Shown piece after piece: positions 2,875 to 20,994 of a stretch of 64,000 bases of DNA. Origin of the DNA: Nitrospiria bacterium (GTDB lineage Bacteria > Nitrospirota > Nitrospiria > Nitrospirales > NS-4); NCBI GenBank assembly GCA_041490525.1, contig JBGPTH010000017.1, positions 52-64,051 of the forward strand, written 5' to 3'. The translations under genes and the position numbers were made by a program. Under the pieces are notes generated by a model. That model was not told the DNA's origin. It made no database searches and saw nothing but the letters and a program-made list of their open reading frames with translations. The first letter of the stretch is position 1; each line of letters starts with the position of its first letter.

Positions 2875-3135
2875 GAGCGGGTGGCGCCGCATGGGACCCG
2901 GGTGGAGCGGAGGGCGCCTACAGCCGAGTCTGCGGGGCTGCAACGCCGAAGTCACCCGTTGCAATCGAGCGGGTGACACCGCATGGGCGCCCAGATGCAG
3001 CGCGGGGCGTACAGCCGGGTCTGCGGGGCCTCAACGGCGAAACGCCCAGCTGCGATGGGCTTTGCGGGGGCAGGACCCGCTCAAAGAGCAACGGGTTCCC
3101 CGTCGCACGTCAGGGTGGCTCGGCGACAGGACCCG
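2875..3135 (+). repeat. GAGCGGGT-family structured repeat, nested copy A (inner 116-bp unit 2967-3082)
   Basis: Begins GAGCGGGTGGC and ends GCGACAGGACCCG. Strongly similar to 3972-4234 and related to 7001-7116, 8586-8729 and 21061-21165. Confidence 0.9.
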
Positions 3136-9889: not shown

Positions 9890-9959
9890 TCGTTATACGT
9901 TATTCGTTAATCGTAAAAGATACCAGGCCTGCAACCGTTTAACGATTAACGATTAACGG
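9890..9959. repeat. Inverted heptamer arrays, cargo-free (4 + 3 units)
   Basis: TCGTTAT ACGTTAT TCGTTAA TCGTAAA, 21 bp spacer, TTAACGA TTAACGA TTAACGG. The ispD stop lies in the outermost unit. Confidence 0.9.
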
Positions 9960-14250: not shown

Positions 14251-14330
14251 TCGTTATTCGTTATTCGTTAAACGTTAATCGTGAAACGGAACTCAAGATG
14301 TAATTACGATTAACGAATAACGTTTAACGA
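14251..14330. repeat. Inverted heptamer arrays, cargo-free (5 + 4 units)
   Basis: TCGTTAT TCGTTAT TCGTTAA ACGTTAA TCGTGAA, 17 bp spacer, ATTACGA TTAACGA ATAACGT TTAACGA. Confidence 0.9.
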
Positions 14331-15441: not shown

Positions 15442-16239
15442 TCAAGGTCTTGCCGTAAGTGTGATGCCGTTGACCGAGGCGAGCGTCGCCGTCACGGACC
15501 CGATGACGACCTTGGCTTTCATCAGAACCGGGACCCGGGCCGCATCGTCGGTCAGCCAGACGCGGATATTGCCTTCGTTCAGGAAGAGCCCCCGGAAGGG
15601 CATGATGACCAGGACACGGATAGTGTCGAATTCCCCGAGCGGCCCTTTCAGGCGCTCCTTGCCCTCGATGCGCGCCTCCAGCCGGTAATTTTTTTTATCG
15701 TGGAACACGTTGATAAACGACGACGAACCTACGTCGACTGTGCGGAGCGTCCGGAAGAGGTAGAGGCAGGAGAGGGTATCCTGGGCTTCGGGCGGGATGT
15801 CCATCGTCTCGGTGGCCCCGTCTTTCGTCACCGTCGCCCGATGGGCGACCTGATCGAACAGGACCTCGATGTCGTTTTTGCGTTTGCCCTCGCGCCGCTT
15901 GAAGAGGAGGCGGGTGGAATAGTTCCCTTGCTCGTCGAGCAGGGACTCGACGCGATTGTTGACCGGATAGAAGACCGAGATGAAATCATTCGACTGCGCG
16001 GTATGGACGACCTTGAGCACGGACCGCACGCCGACGGTCTGGCGCTCCGCAACCTCCATTACCGCAGTGCCGGCGGAGATGACCCCCCACCTCAGGTCGT
16101 AGGTAAGCCGCTCGCCGACGGTAAAGGGGGCGAGAGTGGGATCGGCCAGGCAGGGTGCCGCCAGCACCAGAACCCCCGCCGCGAGCGGGGCGAGGAACCG
16201 GACCGGCACGGAATGCCGTGGACCACTCTCTGCGCGCAT
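15442..16239 (-). CDS. DUF3108-family exported protein
   Basis: PFTVGERLTYDLRWGVISAG ... IRVWLTDDAARVPV; signal-like N-terminus. Confidence 0.75.
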   Translation of the reverse strand: MRAESGPRHSVPVRFLAPLAAGVLVLAAPCLADPTLAPFTVGERLTYDLRWGVISAGTAVMEVAERQTVGVRSVLKVVHTAQSNDFISVFYPVNNRVESLLDEQGNYSTRLLFKRREGKRKNDIEVLFDQVAHRATVTKDGATETMDIPPEAQDTLSCLYLFRTLRTVDVGSSSFINVFHDKKNYRLEARIEGKERLKGPLGEFDTIRVLVIMPFRGLFLNEGNIRVWLTDDAARVPVLMKAKVVIGSVTATLASVNGITLTARP

Positions 16240-16260
16240 CGGGATCAGCGCCGTTCACCC

Positions 16261-17625
16261 TCAGTGCGTGCCGGAAGACCCGCCGACATACTTCTTGACC
16301 TTGGATTCGACGACCTCCCGGATGCGACGCAACGCCTCCTCGGAGGTCGCCTCGAATCGCAAGACGAGCGCCGGCTGGGTGTTCGAGGCCCGAATCAGCC
16401 CCCACCCCTCGGGGAACAGCACGCGCACCCCGTCAATGTCGATGATCTTGTGCTCGCGGGCCAGTTCCTTCCGGGCTTCTTCCACCACCTGGAACTTGAC
16501 GGCGTCCGGGCAGTCCACTCGGATCTCCGGGGTCGCGATCGTCGGAGGCAGGTCGGCGAGCAGGGATGAGAGCGGACGCCCGGCCCTGGCCAGGATCTCC
16601 ACGAGCCGGCACGAGGCATAGACCGCATCGTCATACCCGAAGTACCGATCGGCGAAAAACATGTGGCCGGACATTTCTCCCGCCAGCACCGCATGCTCCT
16701 CCTTCATCTTGGCCTTGATGAGGGAGTGGCCGGTCTTCCACATGATGGGACGGCCGCCCCGCTTGGCCACGTCGTCGTAGAAGACTTGCGAGGCCTTGAC
16801 CTCGGAGATGATCGCGGCGCCTGGGTGGTCCTTCAGGATATCGCGGGCGTACAGCACCAGCAGCTTGTCCCCCCAGAGGATGTCCCCCTTTTCGTCCACG
16901 GCCCCGATGCGGTCCGCGTCCCCATCATAGGCGATCCCGACGTCGGCCTTCGTCTCGCGCACCTTGTGGATCACATCCTGGAGGTTGGCGACCACCGTGG
17001 GATCGGGATGATGGTTCGGGAATCGCCCGTCCACCTCGACGTACATGCCGGTCACCCGACATCCGAGCATGCGCAGGGACTCAGGTCCCACGAGCCCGCC
17101 CATGCCGTTGCCGCAATCCACGATGACGTGGAGGTGAGCGGCGTTGACGCCGGCGAAAGCCTTTTTCATGTAGGCCAGGTAATCCGGAATGATGGCGTGC
17201 TCGGAGACGGTCCCCCGTCCCTCCTCAAAACGGCCTTGTGCGATCTCACCTTCGAGAGCCTTGATGGCGGCGCCGTGGAGGGAGTCTCTCCCAAGACAGA
17301 GCTTGAACCCGTTGTACTCGGGAGGATTGTGGCTGGCCGTGATCATGACCCCCCCGCCCACGGGAAGGGTGAAGAGCGCGAAATACATCAGCGGGGTGGG
17401 ACAGACCCCGATATCCACCACGTCCAGGCCACAGCCTGTCAGGGATTTCAGGATGGCCTCCCGCATCGGCCCCGCGCTGGTCCGCCCGTCCCGCCCCACG
17501 GCCACCGCCTTGGCGCCCGCGCGGACCGCGGTGGACCCGTAAGCCCGCCCGATCTTCTCGGCCAATTCTACCGTGAGGTCGGTCCCGACCACGCCCCGGA
17601 TGTCGTACTCTCTGAAGATGGACAT
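16261..17625 (-). CDS. Phosphomannomutase/phosphoglucomutase (AlgC-like)
   Basis: IFREYDIRG, TASHNP, DGDADR, AGEMSGH, RASNTQP. Confidence 0.95.
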   Translation of the reverse strand: MSIFREYDIRGVVGTDLTVELAEKIGRAYGSTAVRAGAKAVAVGRDGRTSAGPMREAILKSLTGCGLDVVDIGVCPTPLMYFALFTLPVGGGVMITASHNPPEYNGFKLCLGRDSLHGAAIKALEGEIAQGRFEEGRGTVSEHAIIPDYLAYMKKAFAGVNAAHLHVIVDCGNGMGGLVGPESLRMLGCRVTGMYVEVDGRFPNHHPDPTVVANLQDVIHKVRETKADVGIAYDGDADRIGAVDEKGDILWGDKLLVLYARDILKDHPGAAIISEVKASQVFYDDVAKRGGRPIMWKTGHSLIKAKMKEEHAVLAGEMSGHMFFADRYFGYDDAVYASCRLVEILARAGRPLSSLLADLPPTIATPEIRVDCPDAVKFQVVEEARKELAREHKIIDIDGVRVLFPEGWGLIRASNTQPALVLRFEATSEEALRRIREVVESKVKKYVGGSSGTH

Positions 17626-17681
17626 TCGTTAATCGTTATACGTTAATCGTTATTCGTAAATCGTTATTCGTAAATCGTAGA
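17626..17681. repeat. Heptamer tandem array, left arm (8 units)
   Basis: TCGTTAA TCGTTAT ACGTTAA TCGTTAT TCGTAAA TCGTTAT TCGTAAA TCGTAGA; abuts the PMM start codon. Confidence 0.92.
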
Positions 17682-18078
17682 CTAAAGTTCAGTATCTTTG
17701 GCCTTGACTAGATAACGTATAAAACCATTGACGAGCGAAATAGCTCGGAGTGTCCGCTCGCAGTACTTTTGAAATGAATCTTTATCAAAAAATTCCAGCA
17801 TCAAAACCCACAGTCAGGTGGTCAATGACTTCGAACAAGGACCCTCGTGCGTGGCGGACAAACTGAATATTCTCCTGATAATGAAACCTGCCGTAGCCCT
17901 CGGCAATATTTGCGGTCACCGATCTGGCCGCACGAATCAACTGATCAGAAAGACGATACCGCTCTTCAGGAGGAAAGGTTCTCGTCAGATCTGAAATCTC
18001 TTTCCTAAGATCCCTGCAAACAGTCCAAACCTCTAAGTCCTCAAATGTCCTAACTGTCCTCTCGGTCTTGTCAGCCAT
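17682..18078 (-). pseudogene. Four-helix-bundle protein (23S rRNA IVS protein / Avd-like family), frameshifted in a T6 run
   Basis: FEDLEVW, FPPEERYRLSDQLIRAARSVTANIAEGYGR, ARGSLFE. The ORF stops at 17785; deleting one A from 17787-17792 restores IFDKDSFQKYCERTLRAISLVNGFIRYLVKAKDTEL* (131 aa). Confidence 0.88.
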
Positions 18079-18102
18079 ATTTCATCAGACACCGGAACCT
18101 CC

Positions 18103-18137
18103 CAAACGTTTAACGGATAACGTTTAACGATTAACGT
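18103..18137. repeat. Heptamer tandem array, right arm (5 units, inverted relative to the left arm)
   Basis: CAAACGT TTAACGG ATAACGT TTAACGA TTAACGT; contains the manC stop codon (18131-18133). Confidence 0.9.
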
Positions 18138-19606
18138 TTTTCAATCCGGTCGTAGTCGTCCGCCAACCGCACGATGTCGTCTTCGCCCAGATAATCCCCG
18201 CACTGGACCTCGATGATGTCGAGGGGAACAGGGCCGGGATTTTCGATGCGGTGCGCCGTCCCCACCGGAATCGCCGTGCTCTCGTTAACCCGAAGTTCAA
18301 AGACCCGCTCGCCACAGGTGATGCGGGCCTGTCCCGCCGTGACCACCCAGTGCTCGCTCCGCCGATGGTGGAGCTGGAGCGACAGACGGCCGCCCGGCTT
18401 CACCGTCACGCGCTTGACCTTGTATCGAGGGCCTTCCTCCAGCACCGTGTAGCTGCCCCAGGGCCGCTGGACCGTCTTGTGGATCAACTGCTCCGGGGCT
18501 TTCCGCCGGCGCAGCACCTCGACGATCTGCTTGACCTCCTGCGCCCGATCCTTGGGACAGACCAGCGTGGCGTCAGCCGTGTCCACCACCACCATATCGC
18601 GCAGGCCGATGGTGGCCACCAGCCGCTGCTCCCCATATAAGATGGAGTCGCGGCTCCCGAGGTCCACGATCGGGCCGATCCGGACGTTGCCCGCGCGGTC
18701 CTTCTCGGCCACCTCGTCCAGGGCGCTCCAGTTGCCGACATCGCTCCATCGAAACGGCGCCGGGATGACGGCCGCCCGCCGGGTCCGCTGCAGCACGCCG
18801 TGGTCGATCGAGATCGTCTCCGCGCGGCGGTAGAACCGGTCCAGCGCCTGCGCCTCAATAGGCGTGCCCAGCGCGGCGCCGAGCCGCGTGAGGCCGCGCG
18901 ACAGAGCCGGCAAGGCGGCCGCGATTTCCTTCAATATCGCATCGGCCCGCCAGACGAAGATGCCGCTGTTCCAGTAAAACTGCCCGGAGCGCAGGTACCG
19001 CTTCGCGGTGGCCCGATCCGGTTTCTCCATAAAGCTGGTCACCGCCAATGCCTTGAGGCGGCCCTGGGTCAGCAGCGGCTTCCCCTTTATCGCCCGGATA
19101 TAGCCGTAGCCGGTCTCGGGCCGGATCGGTTTGATCCCGAAGGTCACCAGCCGTCCTGTCTGGGCGAGGCGAACCGCCAACGCGGTCGCCCGGCGAAATT
19201 CCGCCTCATCGGGAATGACATGGTCGGCCGGCATCACCAGCATGATGCCTTCGGGGTCCCGCCGGCGGATCACCGTCGCCGCCCACCCGATCGCCGCCGC
19301 GGTGTTGCGGGCTACCGGCTCGGCCAGGATGTTCTCTTTGCGGACCCCGCCGGGATCATCCAGTTGAAACCGGATGGCCTCGGCGTGCCCCGCGCCGGTG
19401 ACGACCACCACGCGGTCGCCCGGAACGATCGGCCTGACCCGATGCACCGTCTGCTGGATCAGCGTCCGGTCGCTCAACACCTTGAGGAGCTGCTTGGGAT
19501 AGAGCTCCCGGCTGAGCGGCCAGAATCGCGTGCCGCTGCCTCCGGCCAGGATGACGGCATAGAGATGCGCGGAAATAGGATCAGAGCCCTTTGTCAATGA
19601 GGTCAT
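18131..19606 (-). CDS. manC: Mannose-1-phosphate guanylyltransferase / mannose-6-phosphate isomerase
   Basis: ILAGGSGTRFWPLSRELYPKQ, EPVARNTA, PETGYGYI, WNSGIF, WSDVGNW, RPWGSY, SLQLHHRRSEHW. Confidence 0.95.
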   Translation of the reverse strand: MTSLTKGSDPISAHLYAVILAGGSGTRFWPLSRELYPKQLLKVLSDRTLIQQTVHRVRPIVPGDRVVVVTGAGHAEAIRFQLDDPGGVRKENILAEPVARNTAAAIGWAATVIRRRDPEGIMLVMPADHVIPDEAEFRRATALAVRLAQTGRLVTFGIKPIRPETGYGYIRAIKGKPLLTQGRLKALAVTSFMEKPDRATAKRYLRSGQFYWNSGIFVWRADAILKEIAAALPALSRGLTRLGAALGTPIEAQALDRFYRRAETISIDHGVLQRTRRAAVIPAPFRWSDVGNWSALDEVAEKDRAGNVRIGPIVDLGSRDSILYGEQRLVATIGLRDMVVVDTADATLVCPKDRAQEVKQIVEVLRRRKAPEQLIHKTVQRPWGSYTVLEEGPRYKVKRVTVKPGGRLSLQLHHRRSEHWVVTAGQARITCGERVFELRVNESTAIPVGTAHRIENPGPVPLDIIEVQCGDYLGEDDIVRLADDYDRIEKR

Positions 19607-20546
19607 GGAGATGAATCATCCCGCAGACGTTCCGATCGGCCTCTACCACCGGCAGCACCGCAAACGGCTTCTCCCGCTCTTCCATCAGCTTGAGCGCCTG
19701 GACCGCCTTGGCATCGGCGTCGATAAAGATCGGATTCGGGTTCATGATCTCGGGGATGCTCATCGTGAAGATGTTGCGCCCCTCCCCGACCGCGCGCCGG
19801 ATGTCGTAATCAGTCACCAGGCCCGCCAGCTTGCCGGTGTCATCCACGATGGAGACCGCGCCGGTGTGCTTCGCCGTGATCTCGGAGAACAGGGCCTGGA
19901 CAGACGCCCCCATATGGACCACCGGATTTCGCGACCCGGTCCGCATCAGATCGCGGACGGTCAGCAACAGGCGCTTGCCGAGCTGCCCGCCCGGGTGGTG
20001 CCGGGCGAAGTCCTCCGGTTGGAAGTCCCGGAGCTTCATGAGGGCCATCGCCAGCGCGTCCCCGACGACCAGGGCTGCGGTCGTGCTGCAGGTCGGGGCC
20101 ATGTTCAGGGGACAGGCCTCCTCCTCCACCGGAGTCAGCAGGACGATATCGGCATGGCGGGCAATCGTGGAGTCGGTCTCCGCCGTGATCGCAATGAGGC
20201 GCGCCCCGATCTTTCGGATGAACGGCAGCATGACGATCAGCTCATCGCTCTCGCCGGACTTGCCGACGGCCACGATCACATCGTCCTTGTGCACGATCCC
20301 GATGTCCCCGTGCATCCCCTCGGTGGGGTGCAGAAACAGGGCGGGGGTCCCCGTGGACACCATCGTCGAAGCGATCTTCTGCGCGATGATCCCGGATTTG
20401 CCGACGCCGGTCAGGATCACCTTGCCGGGGGAGGCGTATATGAGGCGGACCGCTTGTTCGTACGCCGGCCCGACGCATTCACGCACCCGCGCGACCGCCC
20501 TCCCTTCGAGGTCCAGGACCCGCTTGATCTCAGTCAGAATGTCCAT
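19581..20546 (-). CDS. kdsD: Arabinose-5-phosphate isomerase (KpsF/GutQ; SIS + CBS)
   Basis: TGVGKSG, HPTEGMHGDIG, SGESDE, EACPLNMAPTCSTT, HHPGGQLG and a CBS pair. Confidence 0.93.
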   Translation of the reverse strand: MDILTEIKRVLDLEGRAVARVRECVGPAYEQAVRLIYASPGKVILTGVGKSGIIAQKIASTMVSTGTPALFLHPTEGMHGDIGIVHKDDVIVAVGKSGESDELIVMLPFIRKIGARLIAITAETDSTIARHADIVLLTPVEEEACPLNMAPTCSTTAALVVGDALAMALMKLRDFQPEDFARHHPGGQLGKRLLLTVRDLMRTGSRNPVVHMGASVQALFSEITAKHTGAVSIVDDTGKLAGLVTDYDIRRAVGEGRNIFTMSIPEIMNPNPIFIDADAKAVQALKLMEEREKPFAVLPVVEADRNVCGMIHLHDLIDKGL

Positions 20547-20795
20547 TCACACTGCCTGGCCTATGGGCCTCTCGTTTTTGATGGTGACGGTCGGATTCGG
20601 ATTGACCGGCGGGACGGGCAAGCCTCGTTCTTTGAGCAGCGCGACATGCTCTTCCATGCCGCGTCGCGCCTGCTGCAGGCAATCCTCGATGGAGCGTCCC
20701 GTGCCGGTGAACCCGTCGAGGTCCGGCGAATAGAACCCGAAGAAGGTCGGTTCCGCCGTTGCTTCGATGATGAGCGAATACTTCAGGTCAATCAC
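20547..20795 (-). CDS. hicB: HicB-family antitoxin (short, no DNA-binding domain)
   Basis: YSLIIE, YSPDLDGFTGTGRSIEDC, ERGLPVP; overlaps the hicA stop. Confidence 0.8.
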   Translation of the reverse strand: MIDLKYSLIIEATAEPTFFGFYSPDLDGFTGTGRSIEDCLQQARRGMEEHVALLKERGLPVPPVNPNPTVTIKNERPIGQAV

Positions 20796-20994
20796 GCTCC
20801 GTCTCCCGGCGTCCCAATCCGGCAGCCTTCAAGATCGCCTGGCAGGTCCCGGTCGGGACTTCCTTCGTCCCATGATAATCTATGCGAATCAATTGGTCTA
20901 TACCCGGCTTCGAATAATAGCGAATCGCCCCTTTCTCTTTCACGAGCTTAAACCCGTTTCGCTCCAGCAACCTGACTAATTCGCTGAATTTCAC
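20788..20994 (-). CDS. hicA: HicA-family toxin (variant)
   Basis: 68 aa basic protein: ELVRLLERNGF ... HGTKEVPTGTCQAILKAAGL, upstream of hicB. Confidence 0.75.
   Translation of the reverse strand: MKFSELVRLLERNGFKLVKEKGAIRYYSKPGIDQLIRIDYHGTKEVPTGTCQAILKAAGLGRRETERD

Follow-up and report, generated by a model that had tools for sequence, protein, structure and literature searches.

PF05635 four-helix-bundle genes enclosed by inverted short-repeat arrays at operon junctions of Nitrospiria and other bacteria

The PF05635 gene and its repeat arms at a manC-PMM junction

We analyzed a 64,000-nt stretch of DNA from a Nitrospiria bacterium (NCBI GenBank assembly GCA_041490525.1, contig JBGPTH010000017.1), hereafter the window, whose positions serve as coordinates throughout and whose genome has the handle G000. 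The subject is a short element located between manC and PMM, in which a gene of the PF05635/TIGR02436 four-helix-bundle family is flanked by two inverted arrays of heptamers. The upstream host gene, manC (mannose-1-phosphate guanylyltransferase/mannose-6-phosphate isomerase; 18131-19606, minus strand), was recognized by the Pfam domains NTP_transferase (1.9e-45), MannoseP_isomer (3.5e-48) and ManC beta-helix, and the downstream host gene, PMM (phosphomannomutase/phosphoglucomutase; 16261-17625, minus strand), by PGM_PMM domains I-IV. All three genes are on the minus strand, with the PF05635 gene in the middle, and the GC content is 0.37-0.50 inside the element as compared with 0.62-0.72 in the flanks. 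The original prediction, made from the letters of the window, had described an AT-rich gene of the IVS-protein/Avd type (IVS, intervening sequence) at this place; profiles and base composition agree with this description, with the addition that the gene is frameshifted.

The 5' arm (18105-18139, minus strand) consists of 5.0 tandem heptamers (Tandem Repeats Finder, period 7, score 49) and the 3' arm (17626-17678, minus strand) of 7.6 heptamers (period 7, score 64; period 14, score 89), matching the 5 and 8 inverted heptamers noted initially. On the coding strand, units of the 5' arm have the form AAACGTT/AATCGTT, in which CGTT is constant, and those of the 3' arm the form ACGATTT/ACGAATA/ACGATTA, in which AACG is constant. 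The arms are therefore reverse complements, and the consensus of both inverted arrays flanking the PF05635 gene is the heptamer CGTTAWW. Both arrays touch the host genes, as had been predicted: an outer unit of the 5' arm contains the manC TAA stop (18131-18133), and the end of the 3' arm at 17626 directly abuts the PMM ATG (17623-17625). No purine-rich Shine-Dalgarno sequence was visible before the PMM start (...ACGATTAACGA-ATG), so the absence of an evident Shine-Dalgarno stands for this locus; it does not extend to a general rule, as GAGG or AGGAGG follows the 3' arm at many other junctions. A GGGAGG after the 5' arm was considered as a Shine-Dalgarno sequence of the PF05635 gene; it is 19 nt from the ATG and is not claimed as such.

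A three-unit pattern, CGTTANNCGTTANNCGTTA, had 15 matches in the window with at most 1 mismatch and 0 in each of 100 dinucleotide shuffles. All 15 were confined to three sites: the PF05635 element and two gene-less hairpins of the same heptamer family at 9891-9958 and 14252-14329. Each of these hairpins, detected with Tandem Repeats Finder, is placed between two co-oriented minus-strand genes, and their predicted folds have energies of -28.2 and -30.2 kcal/mol, respectively.

The PF05635 gene is the single match to this family in the window's genome in a profile search. It matched PF05635 with E=6e-27 (94.4 bits, cut-off 33.8) and TIGR02436 with 1.3e-23 (83.3 bits, cut-off 24). The first 97 codons, up to a premature TGA, occupy 17785-18078 on the minus strand (Pfam and NCBIfam profiles), and the remainder, including the C-terminal helix (...RAISLVNGFIRYLVKAKD...), is found in another frame of the same strand at 17682-17804 (open reading frame (ORF) list). 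DNA alignment with the orthologs in two related genomes, G014 and G020, in which the ORF of about 115-135 aa is intact, placed a 1-nt insertion near 17787-17797. A 607-nt contig from a separate sequencing run (X9) spans 17591-18197 with 0 differences from the window; therefore, the frameshift is not peculiar to this assembly. We read the window's copy of the cassette as recently frameshifted. Among the window, G020 and G014, dN/dS was 0.06-0.07 in 2 of 3 comparisons (dS 0.83 and 1.24), dS not being computable for the window versus G014; judged from these sequence comparisons, the ORF is under strong purifying selection. When the orthologous elements of G000 and G014 were compared by eye, the 46 nt of the 5' arm and adjoining leader were identical, though dS was at least 0.8, and the 3' arms differed in unit order and number.

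The intact ortholog from G020 (L009), rather than the broken window copy, was used for structure modeling. The model has four helices (predicted local distance difference test, pLDDT, 93), and its query-normalized template modeling (TM) scores were 0.78-0.83 to Xcc0516 (2GSC), 0.72-0.75 to BT_0352 (2RLD) and 0.74 to Avd (4DWL), indicating that the L009 protein is a four-helix up-down bundle like 2GSC and 2RLD. A sequence search against 2GSC gave E=5.6e-13, and PF05635, together with a weak match to bAvd (PF22296), was the only Pfam family found in the protein. PADLOC assigned no defense family to three PF05635 family members. Structures have been solved for members of PF05635/TIGR02436, a family that is very common in bacteria, and we know of no role for it outside diversity-generating retroelements (DGRs). 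The entries 2GSC and 2RLD hold chains A-E, and the title of an article cited in PMC10053308 describes Xcc0516 as an assembly of five four-helix bundles. As far as described in the consulted part of a preprint (bioRxiv 10.1101/2023.10.23.563531), Avd forms a pentamer with a positive charge and, within the DGR ribonucleoprotein, is in contact with RNA; a putative Avd-binding stem-loop occurs in 207 of 278 DGRs with Avd homologs, and the same DGRs also have a duplex between sequences upstream and downstream of the template.

In a 541-nt RNA fold of the locus, the two arrays paired in both the minimum free energy and centroid structures, closing a domain of ~430 nt. The pairing of the two arms and looping out of the gene, which had been proposed, are thus reproduced in silico, and in the modeled RNA the terminal inverted repeats enclose the ORF in a stem. 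The predicted outer helix of 12 bp includes the manC UAA, and at its base the PMM AUG is located in an internal loop of 4 nt. No promoter-like site was detected on the coding strand of the element, and terminator-like sites at the element were not above chance. Rfam searches revealed no rRNA in 16000-20000 and no family at the locus, the only match being a sub-threshold miRNA model elsewhere.

Array-bracketed genes in other genomes and their placement at operon junctions

Three sets of loci were compared. Set 1 comprised the 20 PF05635 places detected among 41 genomes from the same family and order, 14 of which had the gene. For set 2, the best 80 were taken of 567 confirmed relatives that the Nitrospira defluvii protein has in named genomes (Planctomycetota, Omnitrophota, Atribacterota, Desulfobacterota, Gammaproteobacteria and others). 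Set 3 was based on L013, a member of a distant subfamily, and contained the best 80 of its 515 relatives on metagenome contigs, 68 of which were usable. In sets 1 and 2, at least 60 nt of flanking sequence was available on both sides for 95 of 100 loci (L010, L014, L018, L041 and L079 were dropped). With a self-match of at least 11/14 as the criterion, a lag of 7 was detected upstream of the gene in 63 of these 95 loci and downstream of it in 60, with 42 loci having it on both sides; lags of 4-6 and 8-11 were detected in no more than 5 on either side and no more than 1 on both. Set 3 gave a similar picture (upstream 56, downstream 58, both sides 47 of 68; other lags no more than 5). Thus, lag-7 periodicity was present on both flanks in 89 of 163 usable loci, which represent two subfamilies and many phyla, as compared with 0-1 loci for other lags. 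The association of PF05635 genes with flanking inverted 7-mer arrays, which the original prediction had offered as a check, was therefore found in all three sets. Of 162 loci in the three sets combined, 123 scored best with a period of 7 and one (L008) with a period of 9, and 38 remained below threshold. By eye, period 8 was seen in L015 (G040:C9 ~250986-251445; AAGTCNNN) and period 9 in L008 and L010 (G021:C3 and G008:C15; GGTCTNNNN, CTGGTTNNN); Tandem Repeats Finder alone missed such alternating-unit or other-period arrays (L008, L010, L015).

The arrays have a defined polarity. In sets 1 and 2, GT recurred every 7 nt (chain of at least 4) in the upstream arm of 67 of 94 loci, with AC in 6, and the downstream arm had AC every 7 nt in 66 of 94, with GT in 5; such recurrence at other periods was limited to 0-1 loci. 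An inverted 12-mer with at most 1 mismatch bracketed the gene in 84 of 100 loci of sets 1 and 2 (including those with cut flanks) and in 65 of 68 loci of set 3, the median arm being 31 nt. Stem bounds were defined by these 12-mers, as 10-mers gave chance matches and over-long arms. Moreover, arms matched their own partner: at least 13 of 14 bases agreed in 56 of 95 cognate pairs of sets 1 and 2, versus 31 of 564 non-cognate pairs. Arrays of TAACTGA, TCAGTTA, GACAGAT or ATCTGTC were present in none of the fetched loci, and none of 19 pattern matches in viral contigs was a confirmed relative.

We analyzed the placement of the 84 stem-bearing loci of sets 1 and 2 relative to neighboring ORFs. An upstream ORF of at least 80 aa on the same strand was present in 76 of the 84. 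For 58 of these, the stop was between -20 and +12 nt relative to the first paired base of the stem, and 31 of the 76 had it 1-22 nt inside the arm. On the other side, 79 of the 84 loci were followed by a same-strand ORF, which began between -5 and +30 nt relative to the last paired base in 66 cases. Stop/start adjacency, a second proposed check, is therefore the rule. In addition, when coding-strand stop codons were counted in 108 loci, the 5' arm had two or three frames closed in 80 (mean 1.99 frames, versus 1.41 in shuffles), and the 3' arm had no frame closed in 70 (mean 0.62, versus 0.93 in shuffles). The stop codon of the upstream gene is often supplied by the cassette.

The manC-PMM junction occurs in several states among the relatives, ranging, as had been anticipated, from the full element through remnants to nothing. 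A full cassette with intact ORF is present in G014 and G020, and in G015 the ORF is at a contig end. G017 has only the 3' arm plus an unrelated repeat, and G013 only a remnant of ~1.9 units, with a 4-nt gap between the genes. The junction lacks repeats and has an ordinary Shine-Dalgarno sequence or gene overlap in G004, G001, G012, G036 and G038 (FP929003.1). A gene-less CGT-type hairpin is present in G027, and gene-less AAGTC-type hairpins in G033 and G040. The nuoE-nuoF junction provides a further case: in G027 (L019) it contains a PF05635 pseudogene with CGTTAAN arms, and in the window's genome a hairpin of this family that lacks the gene. Thus, different repeat families have settled at these junctions on repeated occasions, and decay of the cassette leaves hairpins or stubs. 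A clean empty/filled pair with a target duplication was not found among the manC-PMM states.

Additional features were observed at individual junctions. In the G020 cassette (L009, G020:C106), an extra nested hairpin of the same family and a TGCTAGT repeat lie between manC and the 5' arm, and the intergenic region measures 611 nt. At manC-PMM of G017 (L102, G017:C108), four 3'-arm units remain and the gene is replaced by another palindromic repeat of the GTCATTGCGAGG...CTCGCAATGAC type. The junction of a gene ending in ...LPKFPVLSL and a following ybgC-like thioesterase gene (MEIRIYYEDTDCGG) carries cassettes of two protein subfamilies, with different repeats, in different Nitrospira genomes (L003 and L021-L024 compared with L012, L017 and L020).

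Gene-less hairpins and the distribution of repeat families

The window's genome (2.82 Mb, 62 contigs) belongs to the same order as Candidatus Nitrospira defluvii. We detected 79 arrays of at least 3 units in it, grouped in 39 loci, only one of which contains the gene; contigs C31 and C44 share the same sequence. The dispersal of gene-less hairpins of the same repeat family, noted by the original prediction for two copies, thus extends through the genome. Most array loci consist of two closely spaced arrays, CGT arm first and ACG arm second, that together span 51-95 bp and have predicted folding energies of -14 to -36 kcal/mol. According to a crude gene call based on third-position GC content, 22 of 30 hairpin loci examined are between co-oriented genes (13 minus-minus, 9 plus-plus), 2 are between convergent genes, 1 is between divergent genes and 5 are unclear. 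Gaps to both neighboring genes are mostly <30 nt, and hairpins occur on both sides of nuoE. We also observed heptamer hairpins beside a tRNA-like sequence and a signal recognition particle (SRP; 4.5S)-like RNA (G000:C5:6286-6699); therefore, hairpins are also located between stable-RNA genes that are cut out of precursors. At G000:C10:63283-63812, CGT-type and ACG-type arrays are 470 bp apart and the whole stretch, arrays included, is open on the minus strand, so that arrays may lie inside or at the edges of coding sequence. An attempt to orient gene-less hairpins by a loop motif was abandoned: loops begin with CGG and end with CCG on both strands, which is merely an extension of the stem, and the motif is therefore uninformative on polarity or on an ORF remnant.

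The only Y1_Tnp gene of the genome (contig C25) had no CGT/ACG arrays within 400 nt, and the same was true of its only RVT_1 match (contig C31). This reverse transcriptase (G000:C31:21752-22675, E=1.3e-19) is in AT-rich DNA and adjoins a helix-turn-helix-like ORF; it is probably a retron- or Abi-type (abortive infection) defense gene unrelated to the hairpins.

To compare repeat families, six patterns were counted in five genomes, summing forward and reverse hits. CGTTANN x3 had 120 hits in G000, 35 in G027, 1 in G021 and 0 in G040 and G038. GTRAATN x3 was found 20 times in G040 and 0 times in each of the other four. The AAGTC octamer pattern, AAGTCNNN x3, had 115 three-unit hits in G040, 3 in G027, 1 in G038 and 0 in G000 and G021. 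ATRGCNN x3 had 152 in G040, 46 in G038, 41 in G021, 9 in G027 and 1 in G000, and CGTGAAR plus three CGT had 73 in G027, 63 in G038, 39 in G021, 29 in G040 and 23 in G000. Finally, GGTCTNNNN x3 had 10 in G000, 2 in G040, 49 in G021, 4 in G038 and 8 in G027, a noisy count given that reversed-pattern controls yielded 8, 8, 20, 4 and 5. Wherever a resident PF05635 gene is flanked by a repeat, at least 20 dispersed hits of that repeat were found (8 of 8 such combinations in G000 and its four relatives).

The main repeat unit also follows protein similarity. In set 2, the top unit was common to 86% of 21 protein pairs with at least 80% amino acid identity, 41% of 197 pairs at 65-80%, 14% of 1054 at 55-65% and 9% of 735 at 45-55%, and 0 of 2000 label shuffles reached the observed difference. 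This count is based on 64 of 80 loci, those with a disrupted ORF, insufficient flanking sequence or <4 anchored units being excluded. Loci L021-L036, which represent several phyla, mostly keep CGTGAAG and/or CGTATCT as main units, with L024 having only one-base variants. The co-variation of protein and repeat is explained as well by co-inheritance as by specific recognition.

Two other features of the window were recorded. The minus strand at 20547-20994 contains two small overlapping ORFs that, by eye from their translations, resemble a HicB/HicA antitoxin-toxin pair, and Tandem Repeats Finder detected a 91-bp tandem repeat at 2875-3041 (1.8 copies, 80% matches).

Interpretation, known systems and significance

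The closest known system is the ORF-bearing IVS of 23S rRNA (Leptospira, Coxiella; "S23p" ORF), in which a PF05635 ORF is likewise enclosed by stem-forming inverted repeats. According to the consulted part of PMC4990558, the Coxiella 23S IVS has an ORF of the same family inside a 28-bp terminal stem that is cut by RNase III, with tandem GACAGAT heptamers upstream of the ORF in 3-4 copies that vary between strains, and the site of RNase III cleavage is where the first repeat begins. This paper agrees with the connection to rRNA intervening sequences drawn by the original prediction. In contrast to the 23S IVS, the window element is in a predicted mRNA between two protein genes (manC and PMM) and not in a 23S rRNA gene, both of its arms are multi-unit arrays that touch stop and start codons, and dozens of gene-less copies are dispersed in the window's genome.

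Other systems share part of this organization. Similar to repetitive extragenic palindromic (REP) sequences and their RAYT genes (REPIN), there is one gene per genome between inverted short repeats together with many gene-less intergenic hairpin doublets, and each gene subfamily has its own repeat family. However, the gene codes for a 120-aa four-helix bundle and not for an HUH Y1 transposase, the repeats are tandem arrays of 7-nt period and not single palindromes, and the sole Y1_Tnp gene lacks nearby arrays. The fold is homologous to that of the Avd protein of DGRs (TM-score 0.74 to 4DWL; weak PF22296 match), but there is no adjacent reverse transcriptase, the only one being on contig C31 with no arrays nearby. 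A template/variable repeat pair was likewise not seen at the locus, though no search was aimed at one. Correia/NEMIS elements are miniature hairpin elements in intergenic regions of operons that are co-transcribed, have no transposase of their own and are reportedly cut by RNase III. The present hairpins are likewise small intergenic elements in operons with no transposase of their own, whereas Correia/NEMIS elements have fixed terminal inverted repeats and a target duplication, and neither tandem heptamers nor an associated protein gene. Intergenic tandem heptamers are also known as short tandemly repeated repetitive (STRR) sequences in cyanobacteria. The TAACTGA heptamers of Beggiatoaceae and cyanobacteria are, in the part of PMC4679880 consulted, tandem and intergenic and most often end 1 nt before a start codon, and a role in translation was suggested for them; like the arms described here, TAACTGA and STRR repeats are 7-nt tandem units in intergenic DNA, but those of TAACTGA are described as direct, a single inverted case excepted. 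None of the terms S23, "intervening" and "four-helix" appears in that paper (PMC4679880). In the literature covered, with subscription journals and supplements outside the search, no statement of a general rule linking PF05635 to inverted arrays was found. Heptamers are known from one Coxiella IVS; an IVS-type element in mRNAs, arms made of arrays and dispersed gene-less relatives are apparently undescribed.

As its layout matches that of the ORF-bearing 23S rRNA IVS of Coxiella, we read the manC-PMM locus as a copy of a widespread IVS-like PF05635 cassette in operon mRNA, with inverted short-repeat arms, usually of 7 nt, and a co-oriented position in the stop-start gap. This is the interpretation toward which we lean, with only slightly better than even confidence. 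The cassette would be transcribed together with manC and PMM and would have no promoter or terminator of its own, since such signals were not detected and the genes are co-oriented. In silico, the arms may pair into an imperfect stem of ~30-35 bp, in several registers, closing a loop of ~430 nt. This stem would set the manC stop opposite the PMM start, which would be masked by the helix, and a ribosome terminating in the 5' arm might melt the helix and unmask the PMM start, so that translational coupling would be kept. By analogy with intervening sequences of rRNA, the stem may also be an RNase III-type substrate, and the window's genome has a gene for RNase III. In this view, the arms would fold the cassette out of the transcript. 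With regard to the protein, Avd homology and the co-distribution of repeats and genes lead us to propose that it probably binds the arrays of its own repeat family, perhaps with each subunit of a pentamer contacting one unit, and that it may serve the upkeep or spread of the repeat family. The ~38 gene-less hairpins at other gene junctions might then be non-autonomous relatives or relics. That the cassette would be a transposase-free mobile element and the empty hairpins its derivatives, as suggested initially, are inferences.

A number of observations weigh against this interpretation. With regard to the RNA stem, the arms at the window's locus are imperfect partners (best 11/14), and the fold of the whole element is only modestly better than those of shuffled sequences (z=-1.9; 5 of 100 shuffles were as good). 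Two RNA runs (X22 and X23) yielded only short pieces and showed no transcript ends. Mismatches within arms included 106 sense-strand G·U versus 103 A·C pairs (p=0.89), that is, no G·U excess; therefore, pairing of the coding-strand RNA is not favored over symmetry at the DNA level. Most mismatches were transversions (281, among 3361 Watson-Crick positions), and the pattern looks like turnover of repeat units rather than compensatory change. With regard to the protein, we know of no catalytic activity of such a four-helix bundle, and the correspondence between five subunits and about 4-5 repeat units would follow from arm length only. Gene copies are broken in L019, L020, L034, L036, L076 and L100 in addition to the window. 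Hairpins also abound where no cognate PF05635 gene was found, namely those of the ATRGC family in G038 and of the CGTGAAG type in G040, G021 and G027, and therefore do not strictly need the gene. Finally, the sample represents two subfamilies and one order and not all of PF05635; DGR-linked Avd genes and the Bacteroides and cyanobacterial members are outside it. Contig "joints" connecting 17649-17664 to 18105-18120 were considered as excision products. They carry the loops of C1:142304, C21:16152, C5:6286 and C3:91943, among others, and are therefore not excision products of the manC-PMM element.

An alternative is that the cassette is a mobile element at the DNA level, the arrays being terminal protein-binding sites or single-stranded DNA hairpins, as in transposon ends, REP/RAYT and IS200/IS605. 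The PF05635 protein would recognize DNA, a host or other activity would move the element, and the RNA stem would be a by-product. The lack of a sense-strand G·U bias in the arms is consistent with this, as are repeat families that are specific to gene subfamilies and dispersed in the same genomes. The manC-PMM junction holds different families depending on lineage (CGT-type in G027, AAGTC-type in G033 and G040), and proteins of one subfamily, 62-80% identical and accompanied by the same CGTGAAG/CGTATCT units, are shared by several phyla, suggesting that the cassette was transferred as a whole. However, the protein has no nuclease or recombinase motif (Pfam detected PF05635 and weak bAvd only), the single Y1 transposase and single reverse transcriptase of the genome lack arrays within 400 nt, and neither a target-site duplication nor an excised form was seen, the contig joints belonging to other hairpin loci. 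An orthologous copy has been kept at one junction across three genera, and the near-universal co-orientation with operons and the fit to stop and start codons point to selection at the transcript level. We consider a DNA element unlikely, at about one chance in several.

Alternatively, the protein might be a domesticated RNA-binding factor of the host, with the dispersed junction hairpins as its regulon for mRNA processing, stability or coupling and with no present mobility. Strong purifying selection on the ORF (dN/dS 0.06-0.07), vertical inheritance at manC-PMM in three genera, a 5' arm that is identical across genera, and the location of hairpins next to tRNA and SRP RNA genes and within the narrow gene junctions of nuo and central-metabolism operons would all fit such a regulator. 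Yet the gene is broken in the window's genome and in G027 while dozens of hairpins persist, hairpin families exist with no cognate gene, only 14 of 41 related genomes have the gene, and its patchy distribution across phyla with a conserved repeat type looks like horizontal spread. Taken together, these points make a host regulator a doubtful explanation. Finally, it is very improbable that the heptamer hairpins are ordinary REP-like repeats into one of which a four-helix-bundle gene landed by chance, as might be supposed from the presence of the gene in only one of 39 array loci; this is already contradicted by the recurrence of the bracketed layout at independent loci (84 of 100 and 65 of 68) that carry many different repeat sequences and come from many phyla, and by arms that match their own partner far better than foreign arms.

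The IVS-like cassette may be extended to a modular system, which we put forward as a speculative proposal that is unlikely to hold in full. Each subunit of the pentamer would read a unit of ~7 nt, composed of a constant anchor (e.g., NGT) and approximately four variable bases, such that each subfamily would have its own repeat "address". Cassette and hairpins would then form a new class of transposase-free elements that colonize the stop-start junctions of operons and the precursors of rRNA and tRNA, harmless by folding out of the transcript, and the heptamers of cyanobacteria and Beggiatoaceae would be footprints of this class.

The rule that the gene, at operon junctions, is boxed by inverted ~7-nt arrays and that gene-less hairpins with its repeat are scattered through its genome would provide PF05635/TIGR02436 with its first cognate nucleic-acid partner. 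It would make testable what the protein binds, how rRNA intervening sequences relate to mRNA elements, how an insertion may sit harmlessly between coupled genes, and whether the abundant heptamer repeats of other phyla belong to the same system. It is also relevant to genome annotation, as the arrays supply stop codons, abut start codons and break assemblies.

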